Shown here: positions 50,679 to 57,557 of the stretch, one piece after another
How the letters are laid out: each line of letters opens with the position of its first letter
Numbering within the stretch: position 1 is the stretch's first letter
Sequence record: MT833282.1
Direction: 5' to 3' (one strand)
DNA: 64,000 nt
DNA from: Escherichia coli phage vB_EcoM_Shy
Translations under genes and position numbers: made by a program
The notes under the pieces: model-generated
The model's input: only the letters and a program-made list of their open reading frames with translations
Told to the model about the DNA's origin: nothing
The model's database searches: none

Positions 50679-51533
50679 ATGTTTGAAAAGATTGATAGTG
50701 TTTATTACAAAACACTTGATGAACGAACTGTAACACAGTTTAAAGATAAGTTTATCTACACAAGTATCTTGAAAGCAATCACCGATGAGTTACAAACATT
50801 AGAGGATGTTTGCTGGCAGATGCACACAGAGAGAAATATTAGGACGTCAGTAGGCCAACAACTTGATAATATTGGCTCACTGATTAAAGTTCCTAGACCT
50901 TTAGGTGCTGATGATGAAACATATAGAGCTATGCTTTATATCCAAATCTTCCTAAGACGCTCTGACACTACTCCAACATTCTTGCAAAAAGCAATTATGA
51001 CACTGTATGGTGCAACTTTCTCTCAGATTTTTGAGCATATTACTCCTAAGACTGGTGGTATCGTTATCCGTATCAACACTAGGAAAAGCGTTCTAGATGC
51101 TGCATATACACTGTCAAAGATTTCTGCAACAACTACTGGCTCCGCTGTTATCTTAAGAGATGTTACTTTAAAGGGAACTGCTTGGACACCTGTAGAGGTT
51201 GCTGATTCATCACTTGCTATTGTTGATGATAAAGAGAACTGGTTTGTAACTGATGCTAACAGAGGTCTTGTCACAAATAACACTGGTGGCTCTCTGGAGT
51301 CCAACCTAGTAGGGAGCCTTGCAGATGCTGGTGTTATTGATGGTTACTTTAAGGTTGACAGAACAGCAAACTCACAGAGCGATGATTATATGACTGTAGA
51401 TAGGTCTAATAATAGCGGCTATTTCATCGTTGGTAAAGAAGCTATTGCAGGTGGTGCATACGGAATCATGGCTGAGGTTGCACAAATTGTCAAAGGCAGA
51501 AAAGATAAATCACAACAAGAAGGAAATTCTTAA
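50679..51533 (+). CDS. baseplate or tail-fibre-attachment protein (putative)
   Basis: 284-aa ORF before the tail fibre genes. Confidence 0.35.
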
Positions 51534-51835
51534 TGGCAGTTTTAAATTGGTCTACAAATGAAGTGGATACTGATGGTAATCAGTTAAAAGTTTTACCACC
51601 ACCGGAAATTCAAGAGACAGGTCTTTTAAAGGGTGAGCCTATGGGTAGACAGTGGTTCAACTATATTATCAACTACCTGCTGAATAAAGTAAACGGCACT
51701 GTCGGTGAAGTTCGCTCATATGCAACTGAGCAACCAGATTTAGTGGCTAATGGCTGGAATCTGATTAAGTCTGAGACAGGGACTGCATCAACAAGTACAA
51801 GAAACCTTTACACATATGAATATGTAGGAGCTTAA
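51533..51835 (+). CDS. hypothetical tail protein
   Basis: 100-aa ORF, coupled. Confidence 0.35.
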
Positions 51836-51837
51836 TA

Positions 51838-53013
51838 ATGGCAGTAGGTGAAATTCAAATTAGTGCCTTGCCACAAGCGGCCTTACCAATTGATTTGAGT
51901 GATATCTTCCACCTTAAGCAAGGTGTTGAGGATAAAAGATGTACGCTTGAACAGTTGTTAGCACCTCACGCATCTTTGAGGAATAACCCTCATGGTGTAA
52001 CTAAATCGCAAGTTGGCCTTGATAATGTTATTAACTCTCTTCAATTAGTTGCAGCTAATAACTTGTCAGATATTGTAAATGTTGCTGAGGCAAGAGCAAA
52101 TCTACAAATTATGTCGTCAGAGGAAGTGAATAACTTAATCCAGCAACATATCGACGACAAAAGTAACCCACACAATACAACGAAAGCACAGGTAGGGTTA
52201 AGTAATGTTCAGAACTGGACAACATCCAACCTGTACAATGAAGATGCTGATAAATATGCTACCGCGAGAGCAGTGAATAATCTATACAAAGCTATCCAAG
52301 CATCATATCCAGTGGGGACTATTCATCTGTCTGTTAACTCTGCTAACCCATCCACTTACTTGCTTTGTGGAGGTACTTGGGAGTTGGTTTCTAAAGGTAG
52401 GGCGCTTGTTGGTTATGATACAGAAGCTAGACCTGTTGGTTCAACGTTCGGTTCTCAGACTGTAGCATTAACAAATAATAATTTACCAGCACACACCCAC
52501 TCTATCTATTTAACAGGTGGTGGTCACACACACTCTGCAAGCGTATCTATCTCTAGTTTTGATTATGGTTCAAAAAGTACATCAACTTTTGATTACGGTA
52601 CAAAAACGACTAATAGTGCTGGTGCTCACACTCACACGTTTAGCGGCACGACAAGTAATGATGGTAACCATAACCATAGAGTACCACTGAGAGGTAATGA
52701 TAGAAGTGGGGGGGATGCTATTACTGCATCTGCTTATGCTGGGGTTAATAATAATACGTATACTGATTTAGCAGGTGCTCACACCCATAGCTTCTCAGGC
52801 ACAACTGCATCATCTGGTGCTCATAGCCATACTGTTGCAATTGGTGCTCATAGCCACACTGTTAATATTGGTTCACACAGTCATACGGGTACTGTTACTG
52901 TCTCTAACTCTGAACATACACACTCAGGAACATCTGGTTCTGTTGGTGGTGGTCAAGCTTTCAGTGTTGAGCAGCCATCTTTTGTCGTATATGTATGGCA
53001 GAGAACAGCTTAA
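51838..53013 (+). CDS. tail fibre protein with C-terminal HxH-repeat domain
   Basis: 391-aa ORF; C-terminal repeated GAHTH/GAHSH/GSHSH motifs and SFDYG(S/T)K(S/T)T repeats shared with the following larger fibre gene. Confidence 0.7.
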   Translation: MAVGEIQISALPQAALPIDLSDIFHLKQGVEDKRCTLEQLLAPHASLRNNPHGVTKSQVGLDNVINSLQLVAANNLSDIVNVAEARANLQIMSSEEVNNLIQQHIDDKSNPHNTTKAQVGLSNVQNWTTSNLYNEDADKYATARAVNNLYKAIQASYPVGTIHLSVNSANPSTYLLCGGTWELVSKGRALVGYDTEARPVGSTFGSQTVALTNNNLPAHTHSIYLTGGGHTHSASVSISSFDYGSKSTSTFDYGTKTTNSAGAHTHTFSGTTSNDGNHNHRVPLRGNDRSGGDAITASAYAGVNNNTYTDLAGAHTHSFSGTTASSGAHSHTVAIGAHSHTVNIGSHSHTGTVTVSNSEHTHSGTSGSVGGGQAFSVEQPSFVVYVWQRTA

Positions 53014-53021
53014 TTTCTTTA

Positions 53022-53045
53022 CAGGGGCTTTGTAGCCCCTTTTAA
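53022..53045 (+). terminator. weak terminator-like hairpin
   Basis: AGGGGCT-TTGT-AGCCCCT followed by a short T-run. Confidence 0.35.
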
Positions 53046-53059
53046 GAGGAAAATTTATA

Positions 53060-55429
53060 ATGGCAGATTACAAATTGAGTCAATTAAACTCAATCGACAC
53101 AATTCGTTCAGAAGACCTATTGCACATCAGAGTTAAGAAAAGACCTGAAATGTTGGGTGACGAAGACCGTAGAATGACCTATCAAGACTTCTTAGCTTCC
53201 TTCAAACTAGAAAGGTTTGTTCAGATTGCTGGGAGTACTATGGTTGGGGATTTAGGTATTGTCAAGTTACTTTACGGTGGCAAGGCTGTATTTGACCCAA
53301 CAGATTCTTCTGAGATTACTATTGGGGATATTTTAAAGACTTTTAAAATTAACTCAAATGGTCTTAAACTCACTATTGCAGATGCTTCAAGGTCGGCAAC
53401 TGTTTATCATACTTTGAATAAACCAAGCCCTAATGAACTTGGTATGAGAACTAATGAAGAGAATGATGCAAGATATGCAAGGCTTGCTGTCACAAATAAC
53501 TTCAGCATTAGGCAAGCAATCGTAACTGATGGTGAGCAGTTAACTCTTAAGAAGGCAACCAATGCAGGTGCTTCATATATTCAAGGTAGAGATGCTAATA
53601 ACCAGCAAACTTGGTATGTTGGACAGGGAAATGCAAACAGCACTAATGTTTATTTGTACAATCATGCTACTGGTGCAATGTTAACCCTTGATGCAACAGC
53701 AGCATTTAATAAGTCACTTAGAATCACTGGACAAGTTCAACCTTCAGATTTCTCTAACTTAGATGCTAGATACTTCACTCAGACAGTTGCTAATCAGAGA
53801 TTTGCACAGTTAGCTGGTAATAACACTTTTACAGGTGCTAATACATTTAGGACTATGAGTATTATCTCAAATGCTGCTGCTATCACACTACAATGTGCAT
53901 CAGCAAATGAATCCCTGTATCTACTTGCAAAAGATTATCAAGGTGGTAACTTATGGTATGTTGGTAAAGGTAGCTCAGGTGATGGTGTAACTATCTACAA
54001 CTATACCACTAACACCTCTTTGGTCTTAGATGCTGCTGGAGTATCAGCAAATAAAAATGTCAGAATCACTGGTCAAGTTCAACCTTCTGATTGGGCTAAT
54101 ATTGACTCTAGATACATTCCAGCAGGGACTTTGAGTAACCTTGCTAAACTGAGTGATGTGAATACTTTTAGGTCTGCGCAAGTTATTAAACAGAATGGTC
54201 CAGTGTTGCAGCTAAGGAATACTATTCAGGACAGGGAGCTATATATCTCTGCTCATAATGCTGATGATGTTAGAAAGTGGTACATCGGTAACGGGGATGC
54301 TAACCCAGCAAGGCTTATTATCCACAACGACAGAACTGCAACTACGATTTATATGCAAGACGATTTCTTGCTGAATAAAACAGTTAGAATCACTGGTCAA
54401 GTTCAACCTTCAGATTTCTCTAACTTAGATGCTAGATATTATACGCAATCTGTTGCGAACTCTAGGTACATGCTTGCTGTATCTACTGGTTCTGGTACAG
54501 AGGTTGGTGATGGAGATGGTATTGCTTGGAATGCTAGAACTGGTTTGTATAATGTTACAGGGAAATCTGGCGGTTCAACACAACTGGTTTATCAGATGTT
54601 TATCGGTGGTGGTTCAACACCAACTGCACAGTTGAAGTTTAGCTACGGGAATGGTGGTATTTCGTACAGGACAGCACGAGATGGGTATGGTTTTGAGAAG
54701 GCATGGGCTAAAATCTATACAGACCAAGATAAACCAACACCTTCAGATATTGGTGCATACACTAAAGCAGAAACTGACCAGAAGATTGCAGAAGCAATTA
54801 GTGACTCTACAGACCTGAATAAAATCTATCCAGTAGGTATTGTAACGTGGTTTAACAGTAATGTTAACCCTAATACAGCACTTCCTGGGTTAACTTGGAC
54901 GTACCTGAACAATGGTGTTGGCAGAACTATTAGAATTGCAGCAGCAAATGGTTCAGATGTTGCTACAACTGGTGGTTCAGACTCTGTAACGTTATCTGTT
55001 GGTAACTTACCTTCACACACGCATAGTTTCTCTGCTACCACTTCATCATTTGATTATGGTACTAAGACGACAAATACGACTGGCAACCATGCTCACAATA
55101 GAGGTAACATGGAAATTTCTGGTGTGGTTGGTTGGTTCAGAAGTGATAGCAGTGCATTCTACACTGCGAGCGGTGCGTTTCAGATGGGTAGTTCTCAGGC
55201 TTCACATGGCTTCACAGGCTCTAACTTCACTTACGGTGCTGCTGCTGATTTCCACGCGTCAAGAACTTGGACAGGTGTAACCAACACAACAGGTAACCAC
55301 AGCCACACTGTTGGTATTGGTGCTCACAGCCACACAGTTAGCGGTAACACTGGTGGTACAGGTTCTGGTTCAGCATTTAGTGTTACTAACCAGTTCTACA
55401 AGTTAATGGCTTGGGTAAGGACTGCTTAA
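53060..55429 (+). CDS. large tail fibre protein (three internal repeats, C-terminal HxH domain)
   Basis: 789-aa ORF; triplicated segment (R)ITGQVQPSD(F/W)(S/A)N(L/I)D(A/S)RY; C-terminal HTHSFSATTSSFDYGTKTTN...GNHSHTVGIGAHSHTV paralogous to the previous gene. Confidence 0.75.
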   Translation: MADYKLSQLNSIDTIRSEDLLHIRVKKRPEMLGDEDRRMTYQDFLASFKLERFVQIAGSTMVGDLGIVKLLYGGKAVFDPTDSSEITIGDILKTFKINSNGLKLTIADASRSATVYHTLNKPSPNELGMRTNEENDARYARLAVTNNFSIRQAIVTDGEQLTLKKATNAGASYIQGRDANNQQTWYVGQGNANSTNVYLYNHATGAMLTLDATAAFNKSLRITGQVQPSDFSNLDARYFTQTVANQRFAQLAGNNTFTGANTFRTMSIISNAAAITLQCASANESLYLLAKDYQGGNLWYVGKGSSGDGVTIYNYTTNTSLVLDAAGVSANKNVRITGQVQPSDWANIDSRYIPAGTLSNLAKLSDVNTFRSAQVIKQNGPVLQLRNTIQDRELYISAHNADDVRKWYIGNGDANPARLIIHNDRTATTIYMQDDFLLNKTVRITGQVQPSDFSNLDARYYTQSVANSRYMLAVSTGSGTEVGDGDGIAWNARTGLYNVTGKSGGSTQLVYQMFIGGGSTPTAQLKFSYGNGGISYRTARDGYGFEKAWAKIYTDQDKPTPSDIGAYTKAETDQKIAEAISDSTDLNKIYPVGIVTWFNSNVNPNTALPGLTWTYLNNGVGRTIRIAAANGSDVATTGGSDSVTLSVGNLPSHTHSFSATTSSFDYGTKTTNTTGNHAHNRGNMEISGVVGWFRSDSSAFYTASGAFQMGSSQASHGFTGSNFTYGAAADFHASRTWTGVTNTTGNHSHTVGIGAHSHTVSGNTGGTGSGSAFSVTNQFYKLMAWVRTA

Positions 55430-55508: not shown

Positions 55509-55706
55509 ATGCCTACAATCCTAGCAATTCTTCTAAAAAATCTAGGTAGCTTCTTCTGGAAACTCATTTTATCCCTTCTAAGTGAATACATGATTGAGAA
55601 AGTGTTCTTTAGGCTTGCAAGATACCTTGCGAGTAAAACAGACACACCTATTGATGATGAGTTCGTAGATAACTTAGAAAAAGCTTTTAAGGGGGAGAAT
55701 AAATGA
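55509..55706 (+). CDS. small membrane protein
   Basis: 65-aa ORF with N-terminal hydrophobic segment (ILAILLKNLGSFFWKLILSLL). Confidence 0.4.
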   Translation: MPTILAILLKNLGSFFWKLILSLLSEYMIEKVFFRLARYLASKTDTPIDDEFVDNLEKAFKGENK

Positions 55707-56074
55707 AGTGGCTAGAGGAAGCTTTTAAAAATAATATTGGTGCAATTGTAGTTGGTATTTTTAGTGTTATTGGGATGTATACCACCATGCAAGTTTCGGA
55801 TGGTAAACAAGAAGTGTCTATCACAACAAAGTTACAGCAGTTAGATAATTATTCCAAAAGTAATTATTCAGCTATTCGTGATTTACAGTCTGATATGAGG
55901 CTGCTTCAGCTAGGGATGGAGAACCAGAAAGTCCAGTTAGAGAATGTTAAGGGTGAGAACGCAAAACTTACCAAAACTCTTGATAAATTCTCTGATAGTG
56001 TGAACAATCTGGCTCAATCAGTATCAGCCCTCCAAGCTATTACTGAGAAGAACACAAAGAATACTGAAAAGTAA
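55703..56074 (+). CDS. membrane-anchored coiled-coil protein
   Basis: 123-aa ORF with N-terminal TM (IGAIVVGIFSVIGMY) and heptad-like C-terminus. Confidence 0.45.
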   Translation: MKWLEEAFKNNIGAIVVGIFSVIGMYTTMQVSDGKQEVSITTKLQQLDNYSKSNYSAIRDLQSDMRLLQLGMENQKVQLENVKGENAKLTKTLDKFSDSVNNLAQSVSALQAITEKNTKNTEK

Positions 56075-56110: not shown

Positions 56111-57010
56111 TTACTTACCGACTGATAATGGTGCTTCAATCTTTCCTGCATGTTGGTAGTTGTTAATACCACCAATAAAGTCACTTGCAGTGAGATGTTT
56201 TAAGTCACTTAAAGTGTTAAGTGGGATACCAATCTCAAAAGTAGGTGCATGAAACTCTTCATTATTCATCAGTTCATAAACCTGCTTCATATGATTCTGA
56301 TAAATCTGAGTATCTCCAAAGACACCTATCAAGTACCGTGGAGTGTATCCAGTCATCTTGCAAAGAACTTCCAGAATAAAACCGTAAGATGCAATATTAA
56401 ACGGAAGTCCTAAAAAGGTGTCTACTGAACGCTGATACCATTGTAAGTCAACTTCACCCTCGTTAGTAATATAAATCTGAAACAGAACATGACAAGGTGC
56501 TAGAGCCATTGAGTTTGCTGCAATATCTGCTGCATTCCAAGCATTAACAAGCATGTAACGGTCTGTGATATCACCCTTCATCTTTGTTACTAAGGTCTCT
56601 AACTGGTCTACAACACAACCATTATGACCTTCAAAGTTTCTCCACTGAACCCCGTAGATTCTCCCACCTGCATCTTCTAACCAATCTTGTTCAGAAGAAT
56701 AATTAGAGCTTAACCAGCGTTTAAAATCATCTGACCAGATAGTCCAGCGTTCTCCGTCATTTTCACCCCAAGTACGATAACGAAGTTCACCAAGCTTATT
56801 CTCGCCATTCAGGAACCATAAAGCCTCCCCAATAACTTGCCGTGTAAACACCTGTTTAGATGTTAAAAGCGGGAAACCAGTTCGCATATCAAAACGAAAC
56901 TGAGGTGGAGCAAATGCAGAGATAACATCTCCAGTTCGTGTAGTACGCAGTTCACCAACTGATAAAACATGGTTCAGGATATTTTTATAACTTGTATCTG
57001 CTTGTGACAT
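56111..57010 (-). CDS. td: thymidylate synthase
   Basis: 299-aa ORF with ThyA signatures (active-site region LAPCHVLFQIY, DTFLGLPFNIASYG). Confidence 0.93.
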   Translation of the reverse strand: MSQADTSYKNILNHVLSVGELRTTRTGDVISAFAPPQFRFDMRTGFPLLTSKQVFTRQVIGEALWFLNGENKLGELRYRTWGENDGERWTIWSDDFKRWLSSNYSSEQDWLEDAGGRIYGVQWRNFEGHNGCVVDQLETLVTKMKGDITDRYMLVNAWNAADIAANSMALAPCHVLFQIYITNEGEVDLQWYQRSVDTFLGLPFNIASYGFILEVLCKMTGYTPRYLIGVFGDTQIYQNHMKQVYELMNNEEFHAPTFEIGIPLNTLSDLKHLTASDFIGGINNYQHAGKIEAPLSVGK

Positions 57011-57011
57011 A

Positions 57012-57557
57012 TCAAAAGTGTCCTTTTACTTGTGGTGTATAGATATCAAAAGTTGCTTTCCCATCTGCTGATGGTCTTGACTGAATCTTAGCAAAAATTT
57101 TACGGTCATGCAACTTATCAAAGAAGTTCTCAAAAGGTAGGTACACAGTTGCCTTTTCAGTCACTTCATGGAAAACTGTATGAAACACTACATCAGCATA
57201 CGGTAAAGCACTGACAAGGATACCTGCACCACCAATTACGAAAACATCCTCTTCAATATTACTGTCAAGATACTTTAAAAATGCTCCAAAAGAGTCTTGA
57301 TGAGCTTTAGCAAACATAACATCATCTTTACTAAAGTCTATACCGTAATAAGGCACAGAGTTTGTTAAGATAAGGTTTTCACGTTCAGGTAAAGGATTAC
57401 TTCCCAGAGTCTTGAAAGTCTCGTTACCCATTATCACTAAGTTGTCTTTAGTGAGTCTCTTAAACTCTTGCATATCCTCTTTATGTCTAGGCCACGGCAT
57501 ACCAGTTGGAGTACCAAACTCCCCATTTTCACCACTTGCAAAGATTAATTTAATCAT
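57012..57557 (-). CDS. frd: dihydrofolate reductase
   Basis: 181-aa ORF; DHFR motifs (GMPWPRHKEDMQEF, VIMGNETFKTL, VIGGAGILVSALPYADVV); adjacent to td. Confidence 0.88.
   Translation of the reverse strand: MIKLIFASGENGEFGTPTGMPWPRHKEDMQEFKRLTKDNLVIMGNETFKTLGSNPLPERENLILTNSVPYYGIDFSKDDVMFAKAHQDSFGAFLKYLDSNIEEDVFVIGGAGILVSALPYADVVFHTVFHEVTEKATVYLPFENFFDKLHDRKIFAKIQSRPSADGKATFDIYTPQVKGHF

Follow-up and report, generated by a model that had tools for sequence, protein, structure and literature searches.

This work concerns two neighbouring tail-fibre genes of Escherichia coli phage vB_EcoM_Shy. We analyzed a stretch of 64,000 nucleotides (sequence record MT833282.1), hereafter the window, in which the short tail fibre (STF) and long tail fibre (LTF) genes follow the gene of a baseplate protein. 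The DNA of the region is 96.9% identical to that of Escherichia phage HMD-P10, and megablast returned 238 matching records, mostly from Felixounavirus. The three genes are given below.

51533..51835, plus strand: LTF platform protein, 100 amino acids (aa), through which the long fibre is attached to the baseplate wedge
51838..53013, plus strand: STF gene, 391 aa, assigned to the tail-fibre family phrog_2097 (E 3e-139) and positioned after the platform gene
53060..55429, plus strand: LTF gene, 789 aa, a full-length match to phrog_4277 (1337 bits)

Both fibre genes have the coordinates given in an earlier note, which was made from the letters of the DNA and had called their products tail fibres. 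For comparison we used Bas63 (Escherichia phage JohannRWettstein), a Felixounavirus studied by cryo-electron microscopy (cryo-EM; Sci Adv 2025; PMC12609058). In a phmmer search of the PDB, the platform protein matched chain S of 9NDY, the 'LTF platform protein (gp025)' of Bas63, over its full length (E 7e-59), and it is also found in phrog_4141. Upstream of the platform gene are the genes of a Baseplate_J wedge protein of 489 aa and a 284-aa baseplate protein (phrog_4017). The order wedge 2, wedge 1, LTF platform, STF, and LTF is the order in Bas63, and the same layout was found in all four related genomes compared (HMD-P10, pEP20, JN01, and NBEco004), where both fibre genes are annotated as tail fibres and the STF counterpart is named 'tail fiber protein'. 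The STF is the counterpart of Bas63 gp26 and Felix O1 gp76 and is 94% identical to the cluster representative P0001. The LTF is the counterpart of Bas63 gp27 and Felix O1 gp77 and is 100% identical to P0121, named 'putative tail fiber protein [Escherichia coli phage vB_EcoM_Shy]'. Based on the phrog fibre families, the Bas63 gene order, and the annotated relatives, which bear out the earlier assignment, we identify the 391-aa and 789-aa proteins as STF and LTF, respectively, of a Felix O1-type phage of the genus Felixounavirus.

The STF consists of an N-terminal region, a collar, and a needle with His-x-His (HxH) motifs that is interrupted by a head.

51838..52257, plus strand: N-terminus presumed to bind the baseplate, with a short shaft, aa 1-140 (functional assignment after Bas63, PMC12609058)
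52258..52482, plus strand: collar domain of the gp10/gp12/gp37 type, aa ~141-215
52483..52677, plus strand: outgoing strand of the needle, aa 216-280, with four HxH motifs (His 219/221, 230/232, 264/266, and 278/280)
52678..52779, plus strand: head, the presumed receptor-binding apex, aa 281-314 (34 aa), whose counterpart in the T4 gp37 alignment is the head that separates HxH 3 from HxH 4
52780..52923, plus strand: returning strand of the needle, aa 315-362, with five HxH motifs (His 315/317, 329/331, 338/340, 347/349, and 360/362)
52924..53013, plus strand: C-terminal strand, aa 363-391, ending in ...FSVEQPSFVVYVWQRTA, and the stop codon; a return to the collar is expected by the T4 gp37 and Bas63 topology

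Among 73 full-length homologues, the first 140 residues of the STF are the best-conserved part, with 0.67-0.81 identity per 20-aa bin. A motif scan found NPHxxTKxQVGLxNV twice in this region, at aa 49-66 and aa 110-126 (51982-52035 and 52165-52215), and the duplication is probably the 'triple alpha helix and turn' element named for the STF in the Bas63 paper. The collar matched Pfam Gp10_C (PF21939) with 68 bits and an E-value of 2e-18. In the outgoing strand, HxH 2-4 align with HxH 1-3 of T4 gp37, and the first motif, at the collar-needle junction, has no T4 counterpart. In the returning strand, HxH 1-4 align with T4 HxH 4-7, and the fifth, near the C-terminus, is extra. The motif histidines are conserved at 0.84-1.00 in the outgoing strand and at 0.81-1.00 in the returning strand. 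The head between the two strands is the least conserved segment (0.12-0.30 identity per bin, mean 14%) and has the lowest predicted local distance difference test (pLDDT) values of a weak monomer model. Conservation of the C-terminal strand is again 0.67-0.81; its tryptophan and arginine are invariant in alignment A1, and the LTF has a similar ending, ...AWVRTA.

The LTF has a longer shaft, which contains three repeat units and one further domain before the collar.

53060..53464, plus strand: conserved N-terminal region, aa 1-135, presumed to bind the baseplate (function taken from the Bas63 paper, PMC12609058)
53465..53806, plus strand: repeat unit 1, aa 136-249 (profile hidden Markov model (HMM) domain, E 3e-52; Pfam gp37_trimer)
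53807..54130, plus strand: repeat unit 2, aa 250-357 (HMM domain, E 2e-42)
54131..54472, plus strand: repeat unit 3, aa 358-471 (HMM domain, E 2e-50)
53708..53793, plus strand: copy 1 of the conserved linker DNA, encoding ...RITGQVQPSDFSNLDARY...; copies 2 and 3 are at 54050-54114 and 54374-54459
54485..54811, plus strand: fifth shaft domain, aa 476-584 (Pfam gp37_C PF12604, E 7e-20, 71.5 bits against a cut-off of 22.5)
54812..55009, plus strand: collar domain, aa ~585-650, aligned to the STF collar and nearly invariant in 49 homologues
55010..55096, plus strand: outgoing strand of the needle, aa 651-679, with two HxH motifs (His 653/655 and 677/679) and the FDYGTK box
55097..55297, plus strand: head, aa 680-746 (67 aa), of the common '4-HxH' type
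55298..55429, plus strand: returning strand of the needle with two HxH motifs (His 747/749 and 756/758), the C-terminal strand ...FYKLMAWVRTA, and the stop codon

The earlier note had described a segment of 25-30 residues repeated three times in the larger protein. The threefold repeat is real, but the repeating unit is about 110 aa long, and the 25-30 residues correspond to the conserved linker at the C-terminal end of each unit. In repeat unit 1, for example, a variable body (aa ~141-220) is followed by a conserved linker (aa ~221-249). BLASTP of the LTF against itself reported no repeats, and the units were excised and compared separately. They are 108-114 aa long and 36-42% identical over their whole length (E 1e-18 to 2e-31). 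The profile HMM found exactly three copies (aa 136-249, 251-357, and 358-471), and Pfam gp37_trimer (PF20744) also matched three times, with an E-value of 7e-64 and 212 bits against a gathering cut-off of 21.7. The string RITGQVQPSD occurs at aa 221, 335, and 443. At the DNA level, the three linker copies are 81-86% identical over 54-86 nt (intragenic blastn). The HMM built from 222 units detected no cryptic fourth or fifth copy in the LTF, and its signal in the conserved N-terminal region was just an independent E-value of 0.65 at aa 94-116. The N-terminal region itself has a mean identity of 96% among 109 homologues. In the fifth shaft domain, aa 477-576 matched residues 329-426 of the Mu tail fiber protein S (8JU3; E 7e-22). 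The LTF collar scored 24 bits with Pfam Gp10_C, below the 27-bit cut-off, yet PF21939 is listed for the identical protein P0121.

The STF and LTF contain nine and four HxH motifs, respectively. Shuffled STF sequences contained on average 1.4 (maximum 6) and shuffled LTF sequences 0.27 (maximum 3), and every other ORF (open reading frame) in the window has at most two. The G(A/S)H(T/S)H repeats of the earlier note are thus real as HxH repeats of the general form GxHxH, whereas the strict motif fits only five of nine in the STF and one of four in the LTF. The note had further compared these repeats with the tip of the T4 long tail fibre, and the comparison turned out to be one of true homology. 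In a search of the PDB, aa 146-361 of the STF matched residues 18-229 of the T4 gp37 tip (2XGF_A) with an E-value of 9e-28, and BLASTP gave 38% identity over 219 columns with 5% gaps (E 9e-30). The 2XGF structure was reportedly described by Bartual et al. in PNAS in 2010. All seven HxH motifs of T4 gp37 line up with STF motifs, and the STF has two more. For the LTF, aa 647-768 matched 2XGF with an E-value of 1.4e-5, and a BLASTP alignment of 108 columns was 43% identical (E 4e-12). The LTF has the FDYGTK box and aligned counterparts of T4 HxH 2, 5, and 6 but not the two head-proximal motifs. Its FDYGTK...GxHxH stretch aligns with T4 gp37 and has fully (100%) conserved HxH histidines, and its returning strand aligns to T4 gp37 GDHSHSVGIGAHTHTV. 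Between the outgoing and returning HxH series there are 67 residues in the LTF, compared with 34 in T4 and in the STF. A collar of the gp10/gp12/gp37 type lies directly before the needle.

Conservation among the homologues, which the note had proposed as a check, is high for these histidines. In the 73 STF homologues, some of which are about 35% identical overall, conservation is 0.81-1.00 over all HxH histidines, and all eight HxH histidines of the LTF are invariant in its 109 homologues, while histidines of the shaft bodies and head that lie outside the motifs reach 0.26-0.59. The number of motifs varies among relatives, from 6 to 11 in STFs (mostly 9), and is 4 or 6 in LTFs. In both fibres, conservation is lowest in the stretch that separates the outgoing from the returning HxH motifs; in the LTF head, identity is 0.62-0.66 per bin and falls to 10% in other head types. 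Conserved HxH histidines together with a variable head are the pattern expected of a metal-stapled scaffold with a variable receptor-binding apex. From the alignment of the motifs with the iron-binding motifs of T4, we infer that HxH layers bind metal in both fibres. In AlphaFold2 (AF2), the monomer model of the LTF tip (aa 560-789) had a pLDDT of 49, because the alignment was too shallow, and for the weak STF monomer model the best structural match was the gp10 C-terminal domain.

The heads of the LTF fall into four discrete types among 120 homologues, and the type of the present phage occurs in 91 of them. All four types follow an invariant collar and are bounded by the FDYGTK...GxHxH box on one side and the GxHxHxVGIGAHSHTV box on the other. 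In P0206, the LTF of Escherichia phage L27, the same collar carries a region (aa 649-765) that is nearly identical to the head and needle of T4 gp37 (2XGF, E 1e-51), which implies that Tevenvirinae and Ounavirinae have recently exchanged the receptor-binding apex. The head type found here gave 38-42% tblastn matches in gp37 of the T-even-like phages VR7 and moha.

Because heads are exchanged exactly between these two boxes, and the DNA similarity of STF and LTF lies in such boxes only, the GxHxH-coding boxes might be maintained chiefly as recombination-promoting DNA, like the 'His boxes' of T-even gp37/gp38, with metal binding secondary or absent. Tetart et al. are said to have described recombination at conserved His boxes of T-even fibre genes in J Mol Biol in 1998. 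However, the histidines are kept at the protein level down to about 35% identity, where DNA homology is lost, and in the crystal structure of T4 gp37 iron is bound by the aligned motifs, according to PMC12609058. We consider this explanation unlikely. A recombination role and a metal-binding role of the boxes are compatible with each other.

The shaft of the LTF is a mosaic of conserved and variable segments. Averaged over the 109 homologues, conservation is 91-97% in the N-terminus, each of the three linkers, the collar, and the returning strand, and 49-80% in the repeat bodies, the Mu-S-like fifth domain, and the head. For the linkers alone the means are 91-94%, versus 49-70% for the bodies between them. 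Pairwise identities of the variable parts are bimodal, and for repeat body 1 almost no pair falls between 50% and 80%. Each of the three repeat bodies (bh1, bh2, and bh3) has about eight allele classes, the fifth domain has four, and the head has several. There are 44 bh1/bh2/bh3 combinations among 110 LTF proteins, and all four gametes are present for six of ten segment pairs. Of the 109 homologues, 72 combine a variable segment of at least 95% identity to the query with another of at most 60%.

The DNA comparison of the LTF genes located the breakpoints, where identity drops from about 100% to 40-55% exactly at the borders of domain bodies. The HMD-P10 gene is about 100% identical except for positions 53481-53720 (240 bp, 40-55%), which are exactly the first repeat body. 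In pEP20 and NBEco004, 54141-54740 is replaced, including repeat unit 3, and in JN01 all three repeat bodies and the fifth domain are replaced while the linkers are kept. Larger changes were also found. In eight LTF variants of ~849 aa, the fifth domain is replaced by an unrelated larger domain. P0175, P0202 (680 aa), and P0223 (673 aa) lack one of the three linker motifs and fall about 110 aa short of the LTF length, and the alignment gap of P0175 removes exactly one repeat unit. These proteins appear to have lost one unit, placed at repeat unit 3, by recombination between the repeated linkers, or they may be assembly artefacts; the repeat number is described as constant among species of the International Committee on Taxonomy of Viruses (PMC12609058). 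Repeat body 1 of P0127 and repeat body 3 of P0204, which correspond to 53495-53707 and 54173-54373 of the window, are 83-85% identical, whereas cassettes at different positions are otherwise at most about 50% identical, which suggests that cassettes occasionally move between repeat positions. By tblastn, the triple-repeat shaft is confined to Ounavirinae, and relatives of the tip extend to T-even and Klebsiella phages.

The Bas63 authors called the shaft variability unexpected and offered mutation tolerance, host recognition, or escape from defence as explanations, leaving recombination unmentioned (PMC12609058). Their first option amounts to relaxed constraint with gradual point mutation of the LTF shaft (PMC12609058). 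Besides being named as possible by these authors, it agrees with the graded divergence inside allele classes, for example the many bh3 pairs at 50-90% identity. Gradual mutation is nevertheless a very unlikely account of the whole pattern: it does not fit the bimodal identities with their nearly empty interval in bh1, the same allele in differing backgrounds with the many three-locus combinations and the four-gamete result, or a short divergent block inside an otherwise almost identical gene, as in HMD-P10. We favour independent cassette exchange at the conserved linkers over drift. In the literature on recombination or mosaicism of Felixounavirus fibres, we found just general remarks on tail-fibre variability and no cassette analysis. 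The note had proposed a modular exchange of host-range determinants, and had suggested comparing fibre genes across related phages. Our comparison strongly supports exchange, with discrete alleles that assort independently between conserved linkers, mainly outside the tips.

Tentatively, the LTF gene may be a combinatorial cassette system in which the linkers and the HxH/FDYGTK boxes serve as joints and the shaft domains act as lateral host-recognition modules or defence targets. We give this extended proposal less than even odds; it would explain the variability that surprised the Bas63 authors. In experimental evolution of a Salmonella Felixounavirus, LTF mutations were found at residues 497 and 534. 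In that phage's own numbering, these residues are probably in the fifth (Mu-S-like) shaft domain and not in the tip, which hints at a role of the shaft in host recognition.

The earlier picture of shared tips on different shafts is an overstatement that the alignments do not support. The C-terminal regions of the two fibres are homologous, since BLASTP aligned STF aa 136-342 with LTF aa 563-760 (E 2e-13). However, the identity is 33% with 22% gaps, there are nine HxH motifs against four and a head of 34 aa against one of 67 aa, and the common DNA is limited to a single 43-nt stretch of 86% identity in the HxH-coding box. Exchange appears instead to be between phages and at each module (repeat bodies, fifth domain, and head), not of a common tip on two shafts. 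The same comparison bears on the idea that the tips arose by recent duplication or owe their likeness to intragenomic gene conversion. The two tips do have the collar, the FDYGTK box, the GxHxH boxes, and the ...W(Q/V)RTA ending in common, and Felix O1 genes 76 and 77 have exact DNA repeats of 51 and 32 bp in common, where the present genes have the 43-nt stretch. Apart from the low identity and the differences in motif number and head length, the STF tip is nearer to T4 gp37 (38% identity, 5% gaps) than to the LTF tip, the DNA similarity is restricted to the HxH-coding boxes, and the P0206 tip groups with T4, in another phage group. We regard recent duplication or gene conversion as highly improbable.

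The reading of the 391-aa product as a T4 gp10-type wedge protein of the baseplate is almost certainly wrong and was rejected: the best Pfam match of the protein is indeed Gp10_C, PDB gp10 chains matched at E 6e-6 to 3e-4, and its model resembles the gp10 C-terminal domain, but the match is limited to aa ~140-240 against gp10 residues 439-529 of 602, the gp10 N-terminal domains and with them the full-length gp10 architecture were not found, the gp37-tip match is far stronger and longer, the rest of the protein matches fibre families, and the cryo-EM of Bas63 assigns the protein at this position as a fibre (PMC12609058).

Taken together, the two genes very probably encode receptor-recognizing, gp37-tipped fibres of a Felix O1-type myovirus that are diversified by recombination at the linkers and the HxH/FDYGTK boxes. 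By analogy with Bas63, each fibre would be a homotrimer anchored by its N-terminus, the LTF on the platform protein and the STF on wedge 2 (PMC12609058). The C-terminal part is predicted to fold like the T4 gp37 tip, with a globular collar followed by a needle. Each chain would run out along the needle, make a small apical head, and come back, giving a six-stranded beta structure, and would end at the collar in the conserved ...W(Q/V)RTA strand. The GxHxH motifs of three chains would place six histidines around one axial metal ion (Fe2+ in T4), and up to nine such ions in the STF and four in the LTF may make the needle more rigid. Contact with the receptor is probably made by the hypervariable head, which lies between the two HxH series of the needle; Felixounavirus phages depend, as far as known, on lipopolysaccharide (LPS). 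In the LTF, three trimeric domains of ~110 aa and the Mu-S-like domain, joined by highly conserved linkers, would form the shaft. Host-range variation would arise mainly from homologous recombination at the linkers and the HxH/FDYGTK boxes, which would swap whole bodies and heads.

Directly 3' of the LTF gene are two small overlapping ORFs on the plus strand. The first (55509-55706) encodes a membrane-like protein of 65 aa in phrog_402, a family of unknown function. The second (55703-56074) encodes 123 aa with a hydrophobic N-terminal stretch and a weak Rz-like spanin match, and the records of HMD-P10 and JN01 label its counterpart 'holin', although holin-lysin cassettes are absent according to the genome paper of Felix O1 (PMC3185647). 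The structural module is directly followed by genes for thymidylate synthase and dihydrofolate reductase on the minus strand (56111-57010 and 57012-57557). The sign of the guanine-cytosine (GC) skew flips at ~56 kb, where the coding strand changes.

The architecture of this fibre pair is already known from close relatives: the likeness to gp37 was reported for Felix O1 in 2010, and both fibres of Bas63 were seen to have the collar, needle, and head in 2025. Our one addition concerns the variability of the shaft, for which the Bas63 authors had no firm explanation and which looks like independent cassette exchange; it is a modest refinement and not a new kind of system. The practical use of the findings would be in host-range engineering and the design of phage therapy. 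Natural splice points for swapping heads or shaft domains are provided by the shaft linkers, the HxH boxes, and the invariant collar, and the HxH counts of 4 to 11 among relatives give a range of possible variation in needle length.

Bas63 has an STF (gp26) of 430 angstroms and an LTF (gp27) of 630 angstroms, each of which terminates in a collar, HxH needle, and head like those of T4 gp37 (PMC12609058). The present phage resembles it in genus, in the gene order (wedge 2 of 489 aa, wedge 1 of ~285 aa, the 100-aa platform, STF, and LTF), in the repeated shaft domains (beta-helices in Bas63) between conserved linkers of the LTF, and in the variability of tips and repeat bodies. It differs in the number of HxH motifs, which is seven in the STF and six in the LTF of Bas63 (with an HHxH) against nine and four here, and in the LTF head, which is longer here and of another type. 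The Bas63 LTF has five shaft domains with 'triple alpha helix and turn' linkers, whereas we detected three sequence repeats and one Mu-S-like domain. Felix O1 gp76 and gp77 are the orthologous pair. Their C-termini were described as similar to T4 gp37 (Viruses 2010; PMC3185647), their mutual amino-acid similarity was ascribed to short common DNA repeats, and gp77 was said to resemble P2-type gpH (PMC3185647). Those repeats, of 51 and 32 bp, contrast with the 43 nt at 86% found here, and the triple-repeat shaft of Felix O1 is 51.5% identical by tblastn.

The likeness to the T4 gp37 tip extends across collar, needle, and head, and some sister LTFs have an almost T4-identical head. Unlike in T4, the tip is on single-protein fibres of 391 and 789 aa and not on a four-protein fibre of 145 nm; the STF has its two extra HxH motifs and the LTF lacks the two head-proximal ones. 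As far as known, the genus uses LPS and not a porin. The ~110-aa repeat bodies, including unit 2, weakly resemble part of the crystal fragment of T7 gp17 (4A0T/4A0U; E ~2e-3), a marginal match over about 60 residues, and T7 has one copy where there are three in tandem here. With Mu S (8JU3) and P2-type gpH, the LTF has one shaft domain in common (aa 477-576), but the distal receptor-binding domain and chaperone of those systems are replaced here by a gp37-type tip. This arrangement can be set beside that in the Sf14 paper, in which two fibres were described, the longer with a T4 gp37-like tip, and Ounavirinae fibres were called Mu-like with a T4-like tip.

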